NCBI GenBank assembly: GCA_046296495.1
Contig: JBKBLB010000002.1
Coordinates: forward strand, 22,590 to 86,589
Origin: Bacteroidia bacterium
GTDB lineage: Bacteria > Bacteroidota > Bacteroidia > UKL13-3
Reading direction: 5' to 3'
Length of the DNA: 64,000 nucleotides
Both the position numbers and the translations under genes were made by a program. Shown piece by piece: positions 4,884-26,355 of the stretch (position 1 is its first letter; each line of letters begins with the position of its first letter). Under the pieces are notes generated by a model. That model did no database searches and was not told the DNA's origin. It was given only the letters and a program-made list of their open reading frames with translations.

Positions 4884-5930
4884 TTAACCCTTTTTAAGTG
4901 TAAAACCAAAGGTTGTTCCTTTGCCAATTGTGCTTCTGGCGTTAATGGTTTGTCCGTGTGCCTCAATTATATGCTTAACAATTGCCAAGCCTAATCCAGT
5001 GCCTCCTTCATCGCCATCGGTTCTTGCTCGACTTTTTTCAACCCTGTAAAAACGTTCAAATATTCTGGGCAAATGTTCTTGTTCTATGCCATTGCCATTG
5101 TCGGCTATTTCAATTAAAATATTTTCATCCATATCATAATACGAAGCAATAACGTGTCCGTTTTTATTGCCATATTTTATAGCGTTTTGTATTAAGTTTA
5201 CCAAAACTTGCCTAATACGGTATTTATCGGCAAAAACATAAAAGGGTTTATTGCATCCGTCTTTAATTTCAAGCGAAATTTGCTTGCTTTTAGCTTTAAT
5301 TTCAAGTTGTTCAAAAATCTCTTTAACCAAGCTGTTTACATCAAACTTTTCAAACTCCATTTCAAGTTCACCGCTTTCGAGTTGCGATATAGCCAATAAA
5401 TCAGCAACCAAATCGCTTAGCCTGTCGGCACTTGATGCAGCTTTTTGCAAAAACCTCATATTAACATTTGGGTCATTTAAAGCGCCATCAATTAATGTAT
5501 GTATATATCCCTGAATATTAAAAATAGGTGTTTTTAACTCATGAGAAACATTGCCAAGAAATTCTTTTCTAAAGTTTGCCAATCTTTTTAATTCTAAAAT
5601 TTCTTGCCTGTTATCTCTTGCCCATTGAATTACTTCTTTATTCATAATGGCAATGGGGTCTTTATCCCAATCAAAGTTTTTTAAAATAGCATCGTATTTC
5701 TCGGTTTTTAAACTATGTATGGTTTTGTATATAAGTTTTATTTTACGATATATAAAAAATTCAAGGGTATAAAAAAACAAAAAGAAAGATAAGCCAAAAC
5801 TTAGGGTAAAAATTATAACTCCGTTAATCCAATTAAAATCGGTTATAAAAAGTGTAACAAAACCAAGTATAAACGACAAAACCAGCGATACAAAAACCGC
5901 TATATTAATCGGTTTTGGGTTTCTTATCAT
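4884..5930 (-). CDS. Two-component sensor histidine kinase (2 TM, HisKA + HATPase_c)
   Basis: H-box VSHELKTPIFNIQGY, N/G1/G2 boxes (NLIQNAIKYG, DNGNGI, GGTGLGLAIV) and two N-terminal TM helices. It overlaps the response-regulator gene upstream by 4 nt. Confidence 0.85.
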   Translation of the reverse strand: MIRNPKPINIAVFVSLVLSFILGFVTLFITDFNWINGVIIFTLSFGLSFFLFFYTLEFFIYRKIKLIYKTIHSLKTEKYDAILKNFDWDKDPIAIMNKEVIQWARDNRQEILELKRLANFRKEFLGNVSHELKTPIFNIQGYIHTLIDGALNDPNVNMRFLQKAASSADRLSDLVADLLAISQLESGELEMEFEKFDVNSLVKEIFEQLEIKAKSKQISLEIKDGCNKPFYVFADKYRIRQVLVNLIQNAIKYGNKNGHVIASYYDMDENILIEIADNGNGIEQEHLPRIFERFYRVEKSRARTDGDEGGTGLGLAIVKHIIEAHGQTINARSTIGKGTTFGFTLKKG

Positions 5931-19083: not shown

Positions 19084-21126
19084 ATGAATAAACTTAATAT
19101 TCTATTATTTTTAATTATACCAATATTTTATTCATTCAGTAAATATAAGTTATCAGATAAAGATAAATTAAATATTGATTTTGAAAAAAGTTTAAATTTA
19201 ACTGCACAATGCTTACATAAATTATATGCTTTTGACACAATAAACACTTTAAAGCTATTTGATAAAATAATAGAATACGATGCTTTAAAACAAAATTATA
19301 TTACAAATTGGTTTGTTTATTACACTAAAGCCGCAATTCAAAGTGATTTATTTTTTAATACCGACTCAGGAATATTTTACGCTGATAAAGCATTAGATTT
19401 AGCATTAAAAAATTATGACAGAGAGTTGATGATTAGAAGCTATATAAAGAAAATTGATTTATTGGAAAGAATAAAAGATGATGAAATGATTTTAGAATAT
19501 TCGTATAGAATAAGTGATTTGCTAAAAGAAAATAAAGGTGAAATTAACCATATAGATATTTTTCATTATTTTAACAGAATTGGAACTGTTTATTTTAGAG
19601 AAGGATATACAGAACTTGCATTATACAATTTTAAAATAGCACTACTAAAAGTAATTAATTCATCAAAAATTTATTCAGATTACGAATATTGGATTCAAAA
19701 CATATTAAACAATATTGGGATGTGTTATGAAGAGCAAGGAAATTACCAAAAAGCAGAAAAATATTATAAACTGGCAATCATAAATTCAAAAAAATCTAAA
19801 AATATTGAAAGGGCTTTAGGCGTAAATTACGCTAGCCTTGCCGCTTTATACCACAAACAAAAAAAGTATGCAGATGCCGAAAAATTCTACCGAAAAGCAT
19901 TAAATTTTGCTTTGAAATTTGAAAACAGAGAAATAGAGCATGGAATAGGTTCATTATTGCGTTTTTCGGATTTGTTGATTGAATTAAATAGGTTGAATGA
20001 GGCAGATTCTGCTTTATCAAACGCTTTTGTTTTAATTAATAATTATAATGTTAAACATCATCTTAAAGTTTATAATTATACAAAATCAAAAATTGAAAGT
20101 AAAAAAGGTAATTACAAGTTATCAAATAATTATTTGATAAATTATATTAAGTTGTTGGATGAAGAAAATATAGAAAAAAGAAAATTTTCTGCAGCTAAGA
20201 TATTAATGACTAAAAATCTGAGAAACATTGAAAATGAAAACAGAAATCTAGAGGCTAAACTTGCCATAGAAAAATCAACATCTTTTGTTTACAGAATATT
20301 TAGCATAACGGTTTTTATATTCTTTTTGATAATATTTATCATTTTGTACAGGCAACATCAAAACAATAAAAAACTTGCAGAGTTAAATTATCAAATAGAA
20401 GAATCAAATACCAATTTAAAACAAATAAACAGAAAGCTTGAAAGCTTAAATAAGCAAAAAACATATTTAATTAATACAGTAGCACATGATTTAAGAAATC
20501 CAATAAGAAATATAAATGTATTATGTGATTTTATAGATAAAGTAAATTTAAATAAAGAGGATTTAGATGTATTAAAAATGATTAAAACCAGCAGTGTAAA
20601 TGCTTCAATTATTGTTGAAGATATTTTGGATCAAGCATTAATTGAAAATGCAACCATTAAACTTACTAAAAAGAAAATTGACTTAGCTGTTGTTGTAAAA
20701 GAAACAATTGACTTGGTTTATTATATGTCTCGAAACAAAAATATTGATATAAATTTTGAGCATGTAGGTGATTTTTGGGTTTTAGTTGATGAAAGTCGAA
20801 TAAGCAGGGTAATACAGAATTTATTAACCAATGCAATTAAATATAGCGAAGCAAATTCGAAAGTATATATTGAATTAAAAAAAGTGGATAAGCATGTTTT
20901 GCTAACTGTTAAAGATTATGGTGTAGGAATTCCTCGTGAGAAATTAACAAAAATATTTGAACCATTTACAAAATATAATTCTACAGGAACAGCATCCGAA
21001 AGATCTTATGGTTTGGGTCTTTCAATAACCAAAAAAATTGTTGAATTGCACAATGGTAAAATTGATGTTGAAAGTGAACCGGGAAAAGGAGCTAAATTTA
21101 TGGTTACCATACCTATAACAACATAA
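19084..21126 (+). CDS. TPR-repeat-containing sensor histidine kinase (orphan)
   Basis: 680 aa. An N-terminal signal/TM is followed by multiple TPR-like repeats, a TM helix (IFSITVFIFFLIIFIILY), an H-box (VAHDLRNPIRN) and a HATPase_c domain (NLLTNAIKYS, DYGVGI, GLGLSITKKIV). Confidence 0.8.
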   Translation: MNKLNILLFLIIPIFYSFSKYKLSDKDKLNIDFEKSLNLTAQCLHKLYAFDTINTLKLFDKIIEYDALKQNYITNWFVYYTKAAIQSDLFFNTDSGIFYADKALDLALKNYDRELMIRSYIKKIDLLERIKDDEMILEYSYRISDLLKENKGEINHIDIFHYFNRIGTVYFREGYTELALYNFKIALLKVINSSKIYSDYEYWIQNILNNIGMCYEEQGNYQKAEKYYKLAIINSKKSKNIERALGVNYASLAALYHKQKKYADAEKFYRKALNFALKFENREIEHGIGSLLRFSDLLIELNRLNEADSALSNAFVLINNYNVKHHLKVYNYTKSKIESKKGNYKLSNNYLINYIKLLDEENIEKRKFSAAKILMTKNLRNIENENRNLEAKLAIEKSTSFVYRIFSITVFIFFLIIFIILYRQHQNNKKLAELNYQIEESNTNLKQINRKLESLNKQKTYLINTVAHDLRNPIRNINVLCDFIDKVNLNKEDLDVLKMIKTSSVNASIIVEDILDQALIENATIKLTKKKIDLAVVVKETIDLVYYMSRNKNIDINFEHVGDFWVLVDESRISRVIQNLLTNAIKYSEANSKVYIELKKVDKHVLLTVKDYGVGIPREKLTKIFEPFTKYNSTGTASERSYGLGLSITKKIVELHNGKIDVESEPGKGAKFMVTIPITT

Positions 21127-21174
21127 TTTGTTAACAACACCCAAAAGTACTTTTTAAAATAATAATTTAGTGGC

Positions 21175-22917
21175 ATGGAAAATTTTGTGGTAAGCGCACG
21201 TAAGTATCGTCCTGCCAGGTTTGATACTGTGATAGGGCAAGAGCATGTTGTAAATACACTTAAAAATGCCATTAAAAATCATCATTTGGCTCATGCTTTT
21301 TTATTTTGTGGTCCCAGAGGTGTTGGAAAAACAACCAGTGCCCGCTTACTTGCTAAAACTATTAATTGTACGAATTTAACAGATGAAATAGAAGCTTGCA
21401 ACGAATGCGAAAGTTGTAAATCGTTTAATAATAATTCCAGTTTTAATGTTTACGAGCTTGATGCAGCCTCTAACAACTCGGTTGAAGATATTAGGGCATT
21501 GGTTGATCAGGTACGTTATGCACCACAGGGTTCAAAATATAAAATATATATAATTGATGAGGTACACATGTTGTCATCTCAGGCTTTTAATGCATTTTTA
21601 AAAACTTTGGAAGAACCGCCATCGTATGCGAAATTTATATTGGCAACAACCGAAAAACATAAAATATTACCAACTATTTTAAGTCGCTGTCAGATTTTCG
21701 ATTTTCACAGAATTGGTGTAAACGATGCGGTAAAACAACTTAAAGAAATTTGCAAAAAAGAAAATATTGAAGCTGAAACCGAAGCCTTACACACCATTGC
21801 ACTTAAAGCAGATGGTGCTATGCGCGATGCCCTTTCGATATTTGATAGAATTGTTAGCTTTTCGGGTAATAAAATTACTTATAACGATGTAATTTCAAAT
21901 CTTAATATTCTTGATTATGAATATTATTTTAAATCAACTAACCTGTTGTTGGCCAATAATATGGCAGGAATGATTTTATTGTTTGATGAAATTTTAACTA
22001 ATGGATTCGATGGATTACAATACATAACAGGATTTGAAGAACACATTAGAAATTTAATGGTATGCAAATTTCCAGATACCAATAAATTATTACAAGTTTC
22101 TGAATCGGTTGCAATAAAGTACAAACAACAAGCTAACTCTTGCAGTGCAGGATTTTTAATTAATGCACTAAATATTTTAAGCAACTGCGAGTTAAATTAT
22201 AAACAAAGCAACAACCAACGATTATATGTTGAATTAACACTCTTAAAACTCTGTAATTTACTTCAGGTTATTAACCCATCAGCTCAGCAACCAATGGTTG
22301 ATGAGAAAAAAAAAATGATTGACAGTTCTGAAAATGAAAATGCTACTATAAATATTCAAAAAAATCAAAACGAAGAAGATTTAAGTAATAATCAATCAAT
22401 ACATCAAAGACCTGTTGCCGATATTCCGCAAGGGAGTGCAAGTAATAGACTTGAAAAATTAAAACAAAAGCTTAAAGAACAACTTCAAAATAAATCTCAG
22501 GATGATTTTAATGGCGAAAATATTGAAAATGAAATAGAAGAAATTAACAACAATATAACTGAAGATGACTTTGCCAATGTTTGGAACAGTTATATTGAGC
22601 ATCTGATGAAAAGCAATAAAACACGTATAAGCAGTTTTTTAAATCAGGCAAAAAAAACATTAAACAACCACACGGTATTGATAGAATTAAGGAGTAAACT
22701 TGAAGCAGACTTGTTTAATGAAGAAAGAATTGAAATGATTCCCTTTTTTAGAAATAGGCTTCAAAATACTTTGTTTGAATTTGAAGTTATAGTTAACGAA
22801 CAATTAATAGAAACAACTAAAGCACTTACCAAGCAGGAACAGCTTAAAATTATAACTGATAAAAATCCGGCAATAGCAACATTAATACAAAAACTTGGAC
22901 TCGAAATTGATTACTAA
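21175..22917 (+). CDS. dnaX: DNA polymerase III subunit tau/gamma
   Basis: Walker A CGPRGVGKTTSAR, a Zn module CNECESCKSF, an SRC motif and a tau-specific C-terminal region. Confidence 0.9.
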   Translation: MENFVVSARKYRPARFDTVIGQEHVVNTLKNAIKNHHLAHAFLFCGPRGVGKTTSARLLAKTINCTNLTDEIEACNECESCKSFNNNSSFNVYELDAASNNSVEDIRALVDQVRYAPQGSKYKIYIIDEVHMLSSQAFNAFLKTLEEPPSYAKFILATTEKHKILPTILSRCQIFDFHRIGVNDAVKQLKEICKKENIEAETEALHTIALKADGAMRDALSIFDRIVSFSGNKITYNDVISNLNILDYEYYFKSTNLLLANNMAGMILLFDEILTNGFDGLQYITGFEEHIRNLMVCKFPDTNKLLQVSESVAIKYKQQANSCSAGFLINALNILSNCELNYKQSNNQRLYVELTLLKLCNLLQVINPSAQQPMVDEKKKMIDSSENENATINIQKNQNEEDLSNNQSIHQRPVADIPQGSASNRLEKLKQKLKEQLQNKSQDDFNGENIENEIEEINNNITEDDFANVWNSYIEHLMKSNKTRISSFLNQAKKTLNNHTVLIELRSKLEADLFNEERIEMIPFFRNRLQNTLFEFEVIVNEQLIETTKALTKQEQLKIITDKNPAIATLIQKLGLEIDY

Positions 22918-22924
22918 ATAAAAC

Positions 22925-23521
22925 ATGCAAAAAATAAAACAAGGTATTGTTTGGCAAATTAGGCGAATAATAAATTATTTTTTAAAAGGCTTATTAATAA
23001 GCTTGCCCGTAATTGTTACTTATAAAATAATAAAAACACTTGTTATTACCTTAGATGAGTTTTTGGAATTGGAGACACCGGGTTTAGGAATTTTAATAGT
23101 AATTACGTCTCTCATATTTATTGGCATAGTTGGTTCAAGCTTTATTATACAACCATTGCTTGATGTGCTTGACGATATATTTTCTAAAATACCTTTTGTA
23201 AAAATAATTTACACTTCGGTAAAAGATTTAATTGAAGCATTTGTTGGCGAGAAAAAGAAGTTTAATAAACCTGTTTTGGTTGAGTTTACAAGTGGTGTTT
23301 ATAAACCCGGATTTGTAACACAAGATGATTGTAACGAGTTTAACCTTCCTGAAATTACCGCAGTTTATTTTCCGCATTCGTATGCATTTAGCGGTAATGT
23401 TTTTTTAGTTGAATGCAATAAAATAAAACCATACAAAGGCAATCAGGCCGATTTTATGAAGTATATTATTTCTGGTGCTGTAACAAAAATTGGCTCAACC
23501 GCAAATGAAAATAATAATTGA
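22925..23521 (+). CDS. DUF502 family membrane protein
   Basis: 198 aa, two TM helices, DUF502-like sequence. Confidence 0.7.
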   Translation: MQKIKQGIVWQIRRIINYFLKGLLISLPVIVTYKIIKTLVITLDEFLELETPGLGILIVITSLIFIGIVGSSFIIQPLLDVLDDIFSKIPFVKIIYTSVKDLIEAFVGEKKKFNKPVLVEFTSGVYKPGFVTQDDCNEFNLPEITAVYFPHSYAFSGNVFLVECNKIKPYKGNQADFMKYIISGAVTKIGSTANENNN

Positions 23522-24386
23522 TTTTTTAAGGCTTATTAGGCTTTCTAACCTGTTAATGGTTGCACTTACACAGTTTTTTGCACTTTACTTTTTAAATAAA
23601 TACACTTATTTTTTTGAATTACTTTCCGGTGATTTGATTTTGTTGGTATTAAGTACTGTACTATCTGCAGCAGCAGGCTATATAATTAATGATTATATGG
23701 ATGTAAAACTAGATTTGATTAATAAACCGCATAGGGTAATTATTGGAAATACCATTAGTAGAAGATGGGCCATGTTGCTTCATTTTATTTTAAATTTATT
23801 GGCAGTAAGTTTTGCATACTTAGTAAACTTAAAAGTTTTTGTATTGGTTTTTTTTTCAACCATCATACTTTGGCTATATTCTCAGTTTTTAAAAAAAACA
23901 TATTTGGCAGGAAATATTATGGTAGCTCTGCTTACCGCCCTTACACTTATTATACTTTTATTTTACGATGAAAGTATTAGTAAGGCAGGTATTTTTACAT
24001 ACAGCATTTTTGCTTTTTTTACTACTTTATTTCGCGAAATAATTAAGGATACAGAAGACATGAAGGGCGATGAAAAGTTTAAAGCATCTACCTACCCGAT
24101 TGTTAAAGGCGTAAGAAAAACAAAAAATCTGCTTATAGCGTTACAAATAATAATTTTAATTCTGGTTTTTACATTTACATCGTTATTTGGCGCTTTAAGT
24201 ATGGCAAAGCCTAAAACATCGTTTTTGTTTATTATTTATTCGTTGTTTTTAGTTTGTGTGCCAATGGTTATAAATTTATGGCTTTTAAAAACAGCAGATG
24301 TAAAAAGTGATTTTTCGAGATTAAGTTTTTTGAGTAAAATAAATATGCTTACCGGAATATTTAGCATGGTTTTTTGGAAATACTAA
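23505..24386 (+). CDS. UbiA-family prenyltransferase
   Basis: Multi-TM; the Asp-rich motif AAAGYIINDYMDVKLD. The ATG at 23505 is preferred over the tracked TTG at 23490, and the gene overlaps the previous one. Confidence 0.7.
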   Translation: MKIIIDFLRLIRLSNLLMVALTQFFALYFLNKYTYFFELLSGDLILLVLSTVLSAAAGYIINDYMDVKLDLINKPHRVIIGNTISRRWAMLLHFILNLLAVSFAYLVNLKVFVLVFFSTIILWLYSQFLKKTYLAGNIMVALLTALTLIILLFYDESISKAGIFTYSIFAFFTTLFREIIKDTEDMKGDEKFKASTYPIVKGVRKTKNLLIALQIIILILVFTFTSLFGALSMAKPKTSFLFIIYSLFLVCVPMVINLWLLKTADVKSDFSRLSFLSKINMLTGIFSMVFWKY

Positions 24387-25164: not shown

Positions 25165-26355
25165 TTGAACCAAATCTTGAGGTATTTATTTTCAATAATA
25201 TTCATCATACTAATTGTTGATGTATTGGCACAGCAAAAAAAAAACCATTATGGTTTTGGATTAAAATTTCTTTTTGGCTATCATGCAGCAGCCAATAGGC
25301 AATCTCTTTATCTTCCTGTTTACGATGCAAACGGTAATATTGTTGGACGTACCTGGGATTATGGCCCATCAATGGATGGTTTTCCATTGGCAATTGATTT
25401 AAGTTTGTTAAGAATCAATAAACAACAAACAAAATTTAATCAATATTTCGGCAATCCGCTTACCGGAATTACATATACAGCCATGATGGTAAATAATACA
25501 GATACATTTGGCTTTAATCATGCTGTTGTTCCATTTGCTGAAGTTAGGCTCAAGCAAACTAATAAATACCAATTAAATGCGCATGTAGGATACGGCTTAA
25601 GCTATGTAACAAAATTATATGATTTTGAGAAAAATTTCGATAACAGAGCAATTGCAACACCAATAAATTTTGCATTAAATTTTGGTTTGAGCTATCATAT
25701 TAAACTAGCCGAAAAAAGAGAATTAAGTACTATAATTAAATATCACCACGTAAGTAACGGCAGTACCAAAATGCCAAACGGAGGTTTTAATATGTTATTG
25801 GTTGGAATTGGTTTAAATTTTACTGAATCGGATTTTTTTAACCTGGCTGAGCCTAATAATTTGAAAACAGACGAAAGATATTTTTATATAATGAGTCATA
25901 TTGCAGGAAGTTATCGCGAAATTGGGTACTTTAGAGATACTAAGGGTTTTTATGTATTGGCAAATAGCAATACGTTATTTTACAAAATAAACCAATTGCT
26001 TTCTTTGGGTGCCGGTGTAGATTTTTTTTATGACCCAAGTCCTTACTTATCAAAAAATATAAGTTTACCACTAAGTAAAGTTTATGAAAGTAATAAAAAG
26101 TATGCGGGTGCAGGTTTTGCTTCAAATTTTAGGTTTAGCAGGTTTTTTATACCTGTTGGCTTTTATACTTATTTAAATAACAGAAATAATATGCTAAACC
26201 AAAACTATATTAGGTTTGGTTTAGGTTTTCAATTAACCGAAAAATTTTATTGTGGCAGTTTTTTTAAAGGCACATTAAAAGGAGGCACTAAATTAGAATC
26301 TGATTTTATGGAGTGGAGTTTGGGTTTTAAATTGCCTTTTAAAAGAAATAAGTAG
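25165..26355 (+). CDS. Acyloxyacyl hydrolase / lipid A deacylase PagL-like outer-membrane protein (tandem-domain)
   Basis: 396 aa with a signal peptide. The first half carries a PagL-type HxSNG motif (HHVSNGSTKMPNGGFN). The second ~180 aa look like a degenerate repeat of the barrel. Confidence 0.5.
   Translation: MNQILRYLFSIIFIILIVDVLAQQKKNHYGFGLKFLFGYHAAANRQSLYLPVYDANGNIVGRTWDYGPSMDGFPLAIDLSLLRINKQQTKFNQYFGNPLTGITYTAMMVNNTDTFGFNHAVVPFAEVRLKQTNKYQLNAHVGYGLSYVTKLYDFEKNFDNRAIATPINFALNFGLSYHIKLAEKRELSTIIKYHHVSNGSTKMPNGGFNMLLVGIGLNFTESDFFNLAEPNNLKTDERYFYIMSHIAGSYREIGYFRDTKGFYVLANSNTLFYKINQLLSLGAGVDFFYDPSPYLSKNISLPLSKVYESNKKYAGAGFASNFRFSRFFIPVGFYTYLNNRNNMLNQNYIRFGLGFQLTEKFYCGSFFKGTLKGGTKLESDFMEWSLGFKLPFKRNK

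Follow-up and report, generated by a model that had tools for sequence, protein, structure and literature searches.

The question raised by the dnaX gene of a Bacteroidia bacterium (GTDB lineage UKL13-3) is whether a run of ten adenines inside its coding sequence serves to make a second, shorter product, gamma, in addition to the full-length product, tau, and, if so, whether RNA polymerase or the ribosome slips on it. The gene lies in a 64,000-nucleotide (nt) stretch of DNA, which was analysed as a whole and is called the window below (assembly GCA_046296495.1, contig JBKBLB010000002.1, positions 22,590 to 86,589, forward strand). A previous reading of the window from its letters alone, referred to here as the sequence-only reading, had proposed a programmed gamma-generating slippage site at this run. 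A comparison with related dnaX loci lent strong support to this proposal, through the conservation of the run, the closure of the alternative frames and the existence of alleles in which the roles of the two products are reversed, and we consider programmed transcriptional slippage of the Thermus thermophilus dnaX type, yielding gamma, to be the likely explanation of the site. That the slippage occurs at transcription, how efficient it is, and that gamma is made are inferred from this comparative evidence.

The gene was identified as dnaX by NCBIfam NF011531 "DNA polymerase III subunit gamma/tau" (726 bits vs a cut-off of 685) and TIGR02397 dnaX_nterm (E = 5e-131, 437 bits vs a cut-off of 250), and its product matched the E. 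coli gamma/tau structures (E = 4e-64). Pfam assigned an ATPase module (PF13177) to residues 21-179, the lid (PF22608) to residues 186-231 and domain III, the collar (PF12169), to residues 245-369, and the A10 run follows nine residues past the end of the last of these. Codon by codon, the sequence around the run reads GAT GAG AAA AAA AAA ATG ATT GAC. The sequence-only reading had assigned the run to three lysines at residues 378-380, at the expected end of clamp-loader domain III, with immediate stops in both shifted frames, and its coordinates and frames were all correct (Table 1). The frame of one extra A, which is also that of a -1 ribosomal shift, reads AAT GAT TGA, and the frame of one A fewer or two As more reads TGA immediately. 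Simulated run lengths gave products of 380 amino acids (aa) for A9, 580 aa for A10, 382 aa for A11 and 381 aa for A12, the computed masses of the short products being 43.0-43.2 kDa vs 66.2 kDa for tau. Since the zero frame runs 200 codons beyond the run, the window does not have the reversed layout of two open reading frames (ORFs) that is described below.

The run by itself is not improbable in DNA of this composition. The content of G and C (GC) of the window is 33.1%, and two A or T runs of at least ten bases were found against 1.4 expected from mononucleotide shuffles and 11 from a first-order Markov model, which agrees with the caveat of the sequence-only reading that about two A10 or T10 runs would arise by chance in 64 kb. 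An argument from the window alone was thus dropped, and the significance of the run rests solely on the comparison with other genomes.

DNA for this comparison was taken from 80 species-representative genomes, 80 metagenome contigs and 9 loci obtained by 8 exact protein look-ups. Loci were anchored by tblastn with the N-terminal 372 residues, and 161 of the 164 anchored loci, including that of the window, were analysable; six look-up loci that were fetched later were left out of the 161-locus table and used only in the analysis of mechanism and hairpin. The metagenome scan gave mostly distant loci (37-50% identity), which are suited to the assessment of breadth rather than of fine-scale evolution. 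Conservation of the run and of the flanking stops in relatives was the check that the sequence-only reading had asked for. A run of A8-A12, mostly A9 or A10, was present at the end of domain III in 128 of the 161 loci (approximately 80%), with A10 in 74, A9 in 41 and A11 in 9. Sorted by layout, 110 loci carried an A8-A12 run with tau in the zero frame, 18 carried an A10, A11 or A21 run in the reversed layout, 26 had no run and 7 had only an unrelated A7. Among cultured species with tau in frame, Ginsengibacter hankyongi and Terrimonas pollutisoli (L071 and L075) carried A8 and A9 runs, and an A10 locus of this layout was not recovered from any cultured species. The run occurred in codon phases 0, 1 and 2, at a locus GC of 27-59% and between flanks without similarity, and AAG, which accounts for 26% of the lysine codons elsewhere in these genes, was never found inside it. 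This spread over phases, base compositions and dissimilar flanks, together with the exclusion of AAG, indicates selection on the nucleotides and not on a lysine patch. At the protein level, KKK was invariant within an otherwise unalignable linker in the 120 best homologues, all from uncultured Bacteroidia or Bacteroidota with 52-100% identity, and the residue after it was nearly always encoded by a codon starting with A.

The stops in the alternative frames were evaluated against random codon boundaries in the same genes. Among the 110 loci with tau in frame, the +1A frame reached a stop within 2 codons in 95 (null, 23%) and the -1A frame within 8 codons in 104 (null, 44%), and both alternative frames were closed within 8 codons in 104 (null, 23%). 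Of these loci, 82 had TGA as the stop of the +1A frame, and in 95 this stop began 0-6 nt past the run. A -1 shift of the ribosome needs just one closed frame, and the closure of both therefore points to slipping by RNA polymerase.

A second line of evidence came from the 18 reversed loci, in which the zero frame encodes gamma and stops 0-6 codons after the run, so that tau needs a shift. A tau C-terminus of 190-230 codons followed in the +1A frame in 17 of them. The clearest case was provided by L081 and L082, which were recovered from two independent samples and share 77% identity with the DnaX of the window over the N-terminal 372 aa. The gene order of a TPR/HisKA sensor kinase, dnaX, DUF502 and a UbiA-family prenyltransferase (19084-24386 in the window) was kept in these two loci, with the kinase upstream and DUF502 and UbiA downstream, as well as in L164-L168, which shows that they are true orthologous loci. 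Gene calling in L081 and L082 had divided dnaX between a 383-aa protein and a 155-aa "DUF8439" ORF. Considering that tau is essential, the shift has to be frequent and efficient in vivo in organisms with reversed alleles. In this sample the single-ORF layout was six times as common as the reversed one (110 vs 18), and the strength of the upstream hairpin described below did not differ significantly between tau-in-frame and reversed loci (p = 0.24). Three loci, L145, L147 and L149, carry nearly the published context of Flavobacterium johnsoniae, TTTGATGGAG-A10-GTTGA.... Splits of the same kind, with a protein of approximately 383 aa and an ORF of approximately 150 aa that matches Pfam PF28557 "DUF8439", were observed among reversed loci (L081, 3769-4236; L083, 1570-2019), and DUF8439 appears to correspond simply to the domain V-like C-terminus of tau in Bacteroidota.

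The events at the run may be pictured as follows. When RNA polymerase occupies the run, its RNA:DNA hybrid of 9-10 bp would consist entirely of rA:dT pairs, and the nascent RNA could realign on the template, so that a fraction of the mRNAs would gain As (A11, A12 and so on) or, more rarely, lose some. The mRNAs with A10 or A13 would give tau (580 or 581 aa, 66 kDa) with its linker and C-terminal KH-like domain, those with A11 would end at the TGA at 22320-22322 (...KKKND, 382 aa), and those with A9 or A12 would end at the TGA at 22316-22318 (380 and 381 aa, respectively). All of the short products would be gamma-like proteins of approximately 43 kDa with complete ATPase, lid and collar domains and nothing more. 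A hairpin in the nascent RNA that is predicted to end 0-2 nt before the run would probably tune or stimulate the slippage, in a geometry like that of an intrinsic terminator with an A-tract in place of the U-tract.

The strongest competitor of this mechanism, although we regard it as unlikely, is that gamma arises from a faithful mRNA by -1 programmed ribosomal frameshifting on A_AAA_AAA, with termination at the TGA at 22320-22322, as in E. coli dnaX. The heptamer is in the correct phase in the window and in every run-bearing locus, the stop of the -1 frame, which is the +1A frame above, is the most tightly conserved feature of the site, and tau is reached precisely through the -1 frame in 17 of the 18 reversed alleles. 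However, the elements that would assist a ribosomal shift were not found. The 50 nt 3' of the run showed no excess structure across the 128 loci (mean z of -0.21), and the 60 nt downstream of the run in the window folded with only -1.2 kcal/mol (z = +0.87), without a stimulatory stem-loop. Tetramers resembling a Shine-Dalgarno (SD) sequence occurred within 18 nt upstream in only 31 of the 128 loci and were not enriched, the window having GAUGAG only, and Bacteroidia ribosomes do not recognise SD sequences (PMC9976891). The A_AAA_AAG heptamer is not present in the window, where the run is followed by T and only A_AAA_AAA is available, and AAG, the shifty codon of E. coli, never stands at the end of a run. 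Moreover, run lengths stay at 9-11 bases, which matches the RNA:DNA hybrid, though a heptamer would serve the ribosome, and this again points to RNA polymerase. The +1 frame, too, is closed at a rate far above expectation. The structure that is conserved at the site is 5' of the run, a position from which RNA polymerase can still be influenced, whereas a ribosome at the run has already unwound it.

This upstream structure was examined by folding. In the window, the minimum free energy (MFE) form pairs 22277-22283 with 22297-22303 and has two inner pairs, and the form homologous to that of close relatives pairs 22283-22292 with 22296-22305 around an AAT loop. Across the 128 loci, the 32-nt segment ending at the first A had a mean MFE of -6.0 kcal/mol vs -3.9 for the segment that ends 6 nt farther 5' (offset -6), whose GC is equal, and the means at other offsets from -90 to +90 lay between -2.5 and -4.0 kcal/mol. 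The MFE of the upstream 36 nt was -6.7 vs -4.1 at random positions in the same genes (p = 9e-13), and the corresponding shuffle z values were -0.86 vs -0.05. When loci were grouped into 78 clusters with dissimilar upstream sequences, the difference persisted in Wilcoxon tests against the -6 offset (p = 1.6e-4) and against the controls (p = 8e-9), and 31 clusters had an MFE of -7 kcal/mol or lower vs 2 among the controls. Unrelated sequences form stems of 8-10 bp that end 0-3 nt before the run (for example, L011, L118 and L025), and the Flavobacterium-like group carries the stem CCTCTATCA-CTTT-TGATGGAG in this position. In an alignment of 11 sequences of the window clade, 84.5% of the cells paired vs at most 57% when the partners were slid. 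One pair covaried (AU in 5, GC in 5 and GU in 1, never unpaired); its partners are the third, synonymous position of a Gln codon and the second position of a Val or Ala codon. The observed score was reached by 6 of 500 shuffles, which gives modest support to the hairpin of the window clade. The hairpin may act on slippage.

An intrinsic terminator at the site was considered and rejected: a scan of 21900-22700 predicted none on either strand, and a hairpin followed by an A-run constitutes no terminator on either strand. As a separate observation, a terminator-like stem, TCTTGCAGTGCAGGA then TTTTTAATTA, is present at 22138-22161 (+) inside the coding sequence of domain III, some 150 nt 5' of the A-run. 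The consensus was matched only once, with 0.3 expected, and the stem is probably due to chance.

A more specific and more tentative version of the transcriptional explanation, to which we give somewhat less than an even chance, is that the hairpin and an A9-A11 tract filling the RNA:DNA hybrid form a terminator-like module that sets the tau:gamma ratio across much of Bacteroidota. In this module, shearing or destabilisation of the hybrid by the hairpin would promote a realignment by one base, mostly the gain of an A, without termination. On this proposal, lineages would flip freely between the two layouts because the efficiency is near one half.

Several observations weigh against transcriptional slippage or limit its reach. 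The polymerases of AT-rich bacteria may be less prone to slip on A9 or T9 (Baranov 2005, PMC1088944), and the host is AT-rich, with a GC of 33%. As noted above, A_AAA_AAA is in the right phase at every run-bearing locus, and the best-conserved stop is that of the -1 frame. In parts of the Chitinophagaceae-like A9 group the hairpin is weak or missing, its mean MFE being -4.8 for A9 vs -6.8 for A10 loci, and its covariation rests on 11 sequences and essentially one pair. Long A-runs are tolerated in this DNA, as a second coding A10 at 25235-25244 in the window indicates. The run is missing from 33 of the 161 loci, mainly of gut and rumen Bacteroidales, so that the device has been dispensable or replaced in some lineages. 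In addition, the loci are not phylogenetically independent, and for many of them the source is a metagenome bin, in which homopolymer lengths can be miscalled. Among the loci without a run, those that are Bacteroidales-like are L033, L060, L080, L091-L099, L103 and L107, and two others, L050 (gagaaaaagaaacaa, EKKKQ) and L012 (aataagaaacaa, NKKQ), look like decayed remnants in sequence, AAAAAGAAACAA being an example.

It is very improbable, in our estimation, that the run has no recoding role and that only tau is made, the adenines reflecting a useful lysine-rich patch at the end of domain III or plain AT bias. Such an origin would suit an A10 that is unremarkable at 33% GC, the second coding A10 of the window and the invariance of KKK in the protein. 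However, the run persists up to 59% GC and in three phases, so that the encoded peptide differs, and AAG does not interrupt it; selection at the protein level cannot account for stops in both other frames or for the reversed alleles; and a close relative has not kept the other A10 of the window. Slightly less probable still is a contingency locus at the DNA level, in which reversible replication slippage would switch cells or lineages between tau-only and gamma-only states, as the occurrence of both layouts among close relatives (the window vs L081) and an A21 in place of A10 on one contig of a sister species (L083) might suggest, because tau is essential and a heritable gamma-only state would be lethal without slippage at the level of expression, what distinguishes the reversed alleles is the frame downstream of the run and not its length, which stays at A10, and the layout is stable within clades such as the Flavobacterium-like group L141-L149.

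The A21 of L083 lies at 1378-1398 of Logan contig SRR31637354_185616 (protein P0051), with an identical downstream sequence and tau out of frame, and other samples of the sister species carry A10 (proteins P0002-P0004). We did not use it as evidence, because a real expansion, an RNA-derived contig with slippage products and an assembly artefact are indistinguishable here.

The second A10 of the window is located just past the predicted signal peptide of a 396-aa ORF at 25165-26355 (+), in the context VLAQQKKNHYGFG, and its shifted frames reach stops only after approximately 9 and 20 codons. An apparent homologue of this ORF in L081, which starts at 5731 and is called PagL-family, has only A6 at the corresponding place; unlike the dnaX run, the second A10 does not look conserved. 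The only further A or T run of at least 9 in the window is a T9 in the sense strand, at 23848-23856, within the UbiA-family prenyltransferase ORF at 23490-24386 (+).

The portion of DnaX that would be specific to tau consists of a linker and a C-terminal domain. The linker is predicted to be mostly disordered, with an AlphaFold2 confidence score (pLDDT) of approximately 47-61 over residues 1-80 of the modelled fragment, and its alignment columns are unconserved. The C-terminus is modelled as a confidently folded domain with a type-II KH-like fold, as in tau domain V, which would be missing from the predicted gamma. By sequence, Pfam gave only sub-threshold matches for this region (PolC N-II, E = 0.006), and a profile search of PDB sequences returned nothing meaningful, so that only the fold comparison was informative. 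At gathering thresholds, the sole Rfam match over the window was one tRNA.

Table 1. Coordinates of the dnaX site and its flanking features in the window (position 1 is the first letter of the window).
Feature	Position	Strand	Basis
dnaX ORF, zero frame, full-length tau (580 aa, 66.2 kDa)	21175..22917	+	ORF list, profile matches
Clamp-loader domains I-III (aa 1-369), common to tau and predicted gamma	21175..22281	+	Pfam
Predicted nascent-RNA hairpin adjoining the 5' edge of the A-run	22277..22305	+	Folding, -10.9 kcal/mol, z = -2.28
A10 slippery run: K378-K380 and the first base (A of ATG) of M381	22306..22315	+	Sequence read-out
TGA in the frame of one A fewer or two As more; products would end ...DEKKK (380 aa) or ...DEKKKK (381 aa)	22316..22318	+	
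TGA in the frame of one extra A or a -1 ribosomal shift; product would end ...DEKKKND (382 aa, 43.2 kDa)	22320..22322	+	
Tau-only linker (aa 381-460), variable, predicted mostly disordered	22315..22554	+	AlphaFold2, alignments
Tau-only folded C-terminal domain (core aa 461-540, then terminal helices)	22555..22914	+	

Among known systems, the closest to the site in the window is dnaX of T. thermophilus, in which transcriptional slippage on A9 with stops in both frames has been proven (Larsen et al., 2000, as summarised in PMC1088944 and PMC5009743). The two share tau in a single ORF, a sense-strand run of at least nine As at the place where gamma should end, and stops nearby in both frames. In Thermus, gamma comes from mRNAs whose run length differs from the templated length plus a multiple of three, and the same would be expected in the window. 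They differ in phylum and in that the window belongs to an AT-rich mesophilic genome, in which slippage is proposed from comparison, whereas it has been proven in Thermus. In the window, furthermore, the A10 directly follows domain III, so that gamma, at approximately 43 kDa, would have almost no linker, and a hairpin, possibly a further difference, is predicted 5' of the run.

The same position in dnaX had also been noticed within Bacteroidota. Antonov et al. (2013, PMC3711429) reported 17 dnaX genes from 12 genera in which a poly-A run divides the gene into two ORFs, and their Supplementary Figure S3 aligns Flavobacterium johnsoniae, F. psychrophilum and Cytophaga hutchinsonii (A10) with the Thermus A9, together with Capnocytophaga ochracea (nine As in the figure), several Chlorobi (Chlorobium) and Coraliomargarita. 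Transcriptional realignment was their proposed explanation, the product of the shift being tau (PMC3711429). The gene, the position, the poly-A run (mostly A10), part of the phylum and the proposed mechanism are thus the same as ours, but the zero frame there is gamma and the shift gives tau, whereas in the window the zero frame is tau and the shift would give gamma. A change of a single nucleotide can exchange the product that depends on the shift (Atkins 2016, PMC5009743). Since their method, GeneTack, detects only frameshifted genes (PMC3711429), the single-ORF layout was invisible to it. The statement of the sequence-only reading that such a site is undocumented in Bacteroidota accordingly does not hold for poly-A dnaX sites as such, given those listed for Flavobacterium, Cytophaga and Capnocytophaga, all of them reversed; in the open-access papers searched on recoding and slippage, we found neither the single-ORF layout nor the upstream hairpin described for Bacteroidota dnaX.

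Other systems share single elements with the site. The E. coli dnaX cassette combines A_AAA_AAG with an upstream SD sequence and a downstream stem-loop. Gamma is made there by a -1 programmed ribosomal frameshift (PMC5009743, PMC1088944), and, as predicted for the window, it lacks the tau C-terminal domains and ends right after a slippery site of lysine codons. In contrast, the window has no AAG, downstream stem-loop or usable SD sequence, its run is longer than a heptamer, and both of its alternative frames are closed. A nascent-RNA stem-loop is needed for slippage in the IS630 transposase of Roseiflexus, where the motif is T5C5 and one base is deleted (Penno et al., 2015, as summarised in PMC5009743). 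The predicted stem-loop of the window is likewise directly 5' of the slip motif in a terminator-like geometry, but its long A run should slip unaided, the favoured change appears to be an insertion, and the role of the hairpin is putative. Caulobacter crescentus obtains the same two DnaX forms post-translationally and without a slippery sequence, gamma being produced by ClpXP processing of tau (Vass and Chien; bioRxiv 10.1101/2022.11.10.516041).

Taken together, the mechanism put forward by the sequence-only reading is very probably right in kind, and the site is most likely a dnaX slippage site of the Thermus type in a phylum from which the mirror-image layout was reported in 2013, that is, an already-known trick. 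What the present analysis adds is its breadth over approximately 80% of the 161 loci, the presence of both layouts among close relatives, and the hairpin adjoining the run, which is the only potentially new element.

The need of bacteria for gamma has been debated for thirty years, and a nucleotide device for making it that is kept in most of these diverse Bacteroidota loci bears on this debate. The conservation of the run, together with lineages that have swapped which product is shifted, argues for selection on both forms and for efficient slippage. Two rules for annotation also follow from these results. A Bacteroidota dnaX that is called as a protein of approximately 380 aa and then a small "DUF8439" ORF should be regarded as an intact gene with a programmed shift and not as a pseudogene, and a single-ORF dnaX with A9-A11 should be expected to give two products. 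If functional, the combination of hairpin and A-tract would tie slippage mechanistically to intrinsic termination. If the terminator-like module proves true, it would be the first case of a slippage cassette assisted by a hairpin in a core cellular gene, and the phylum as a whole would constitute a natural experiment that shows selection on gamma.

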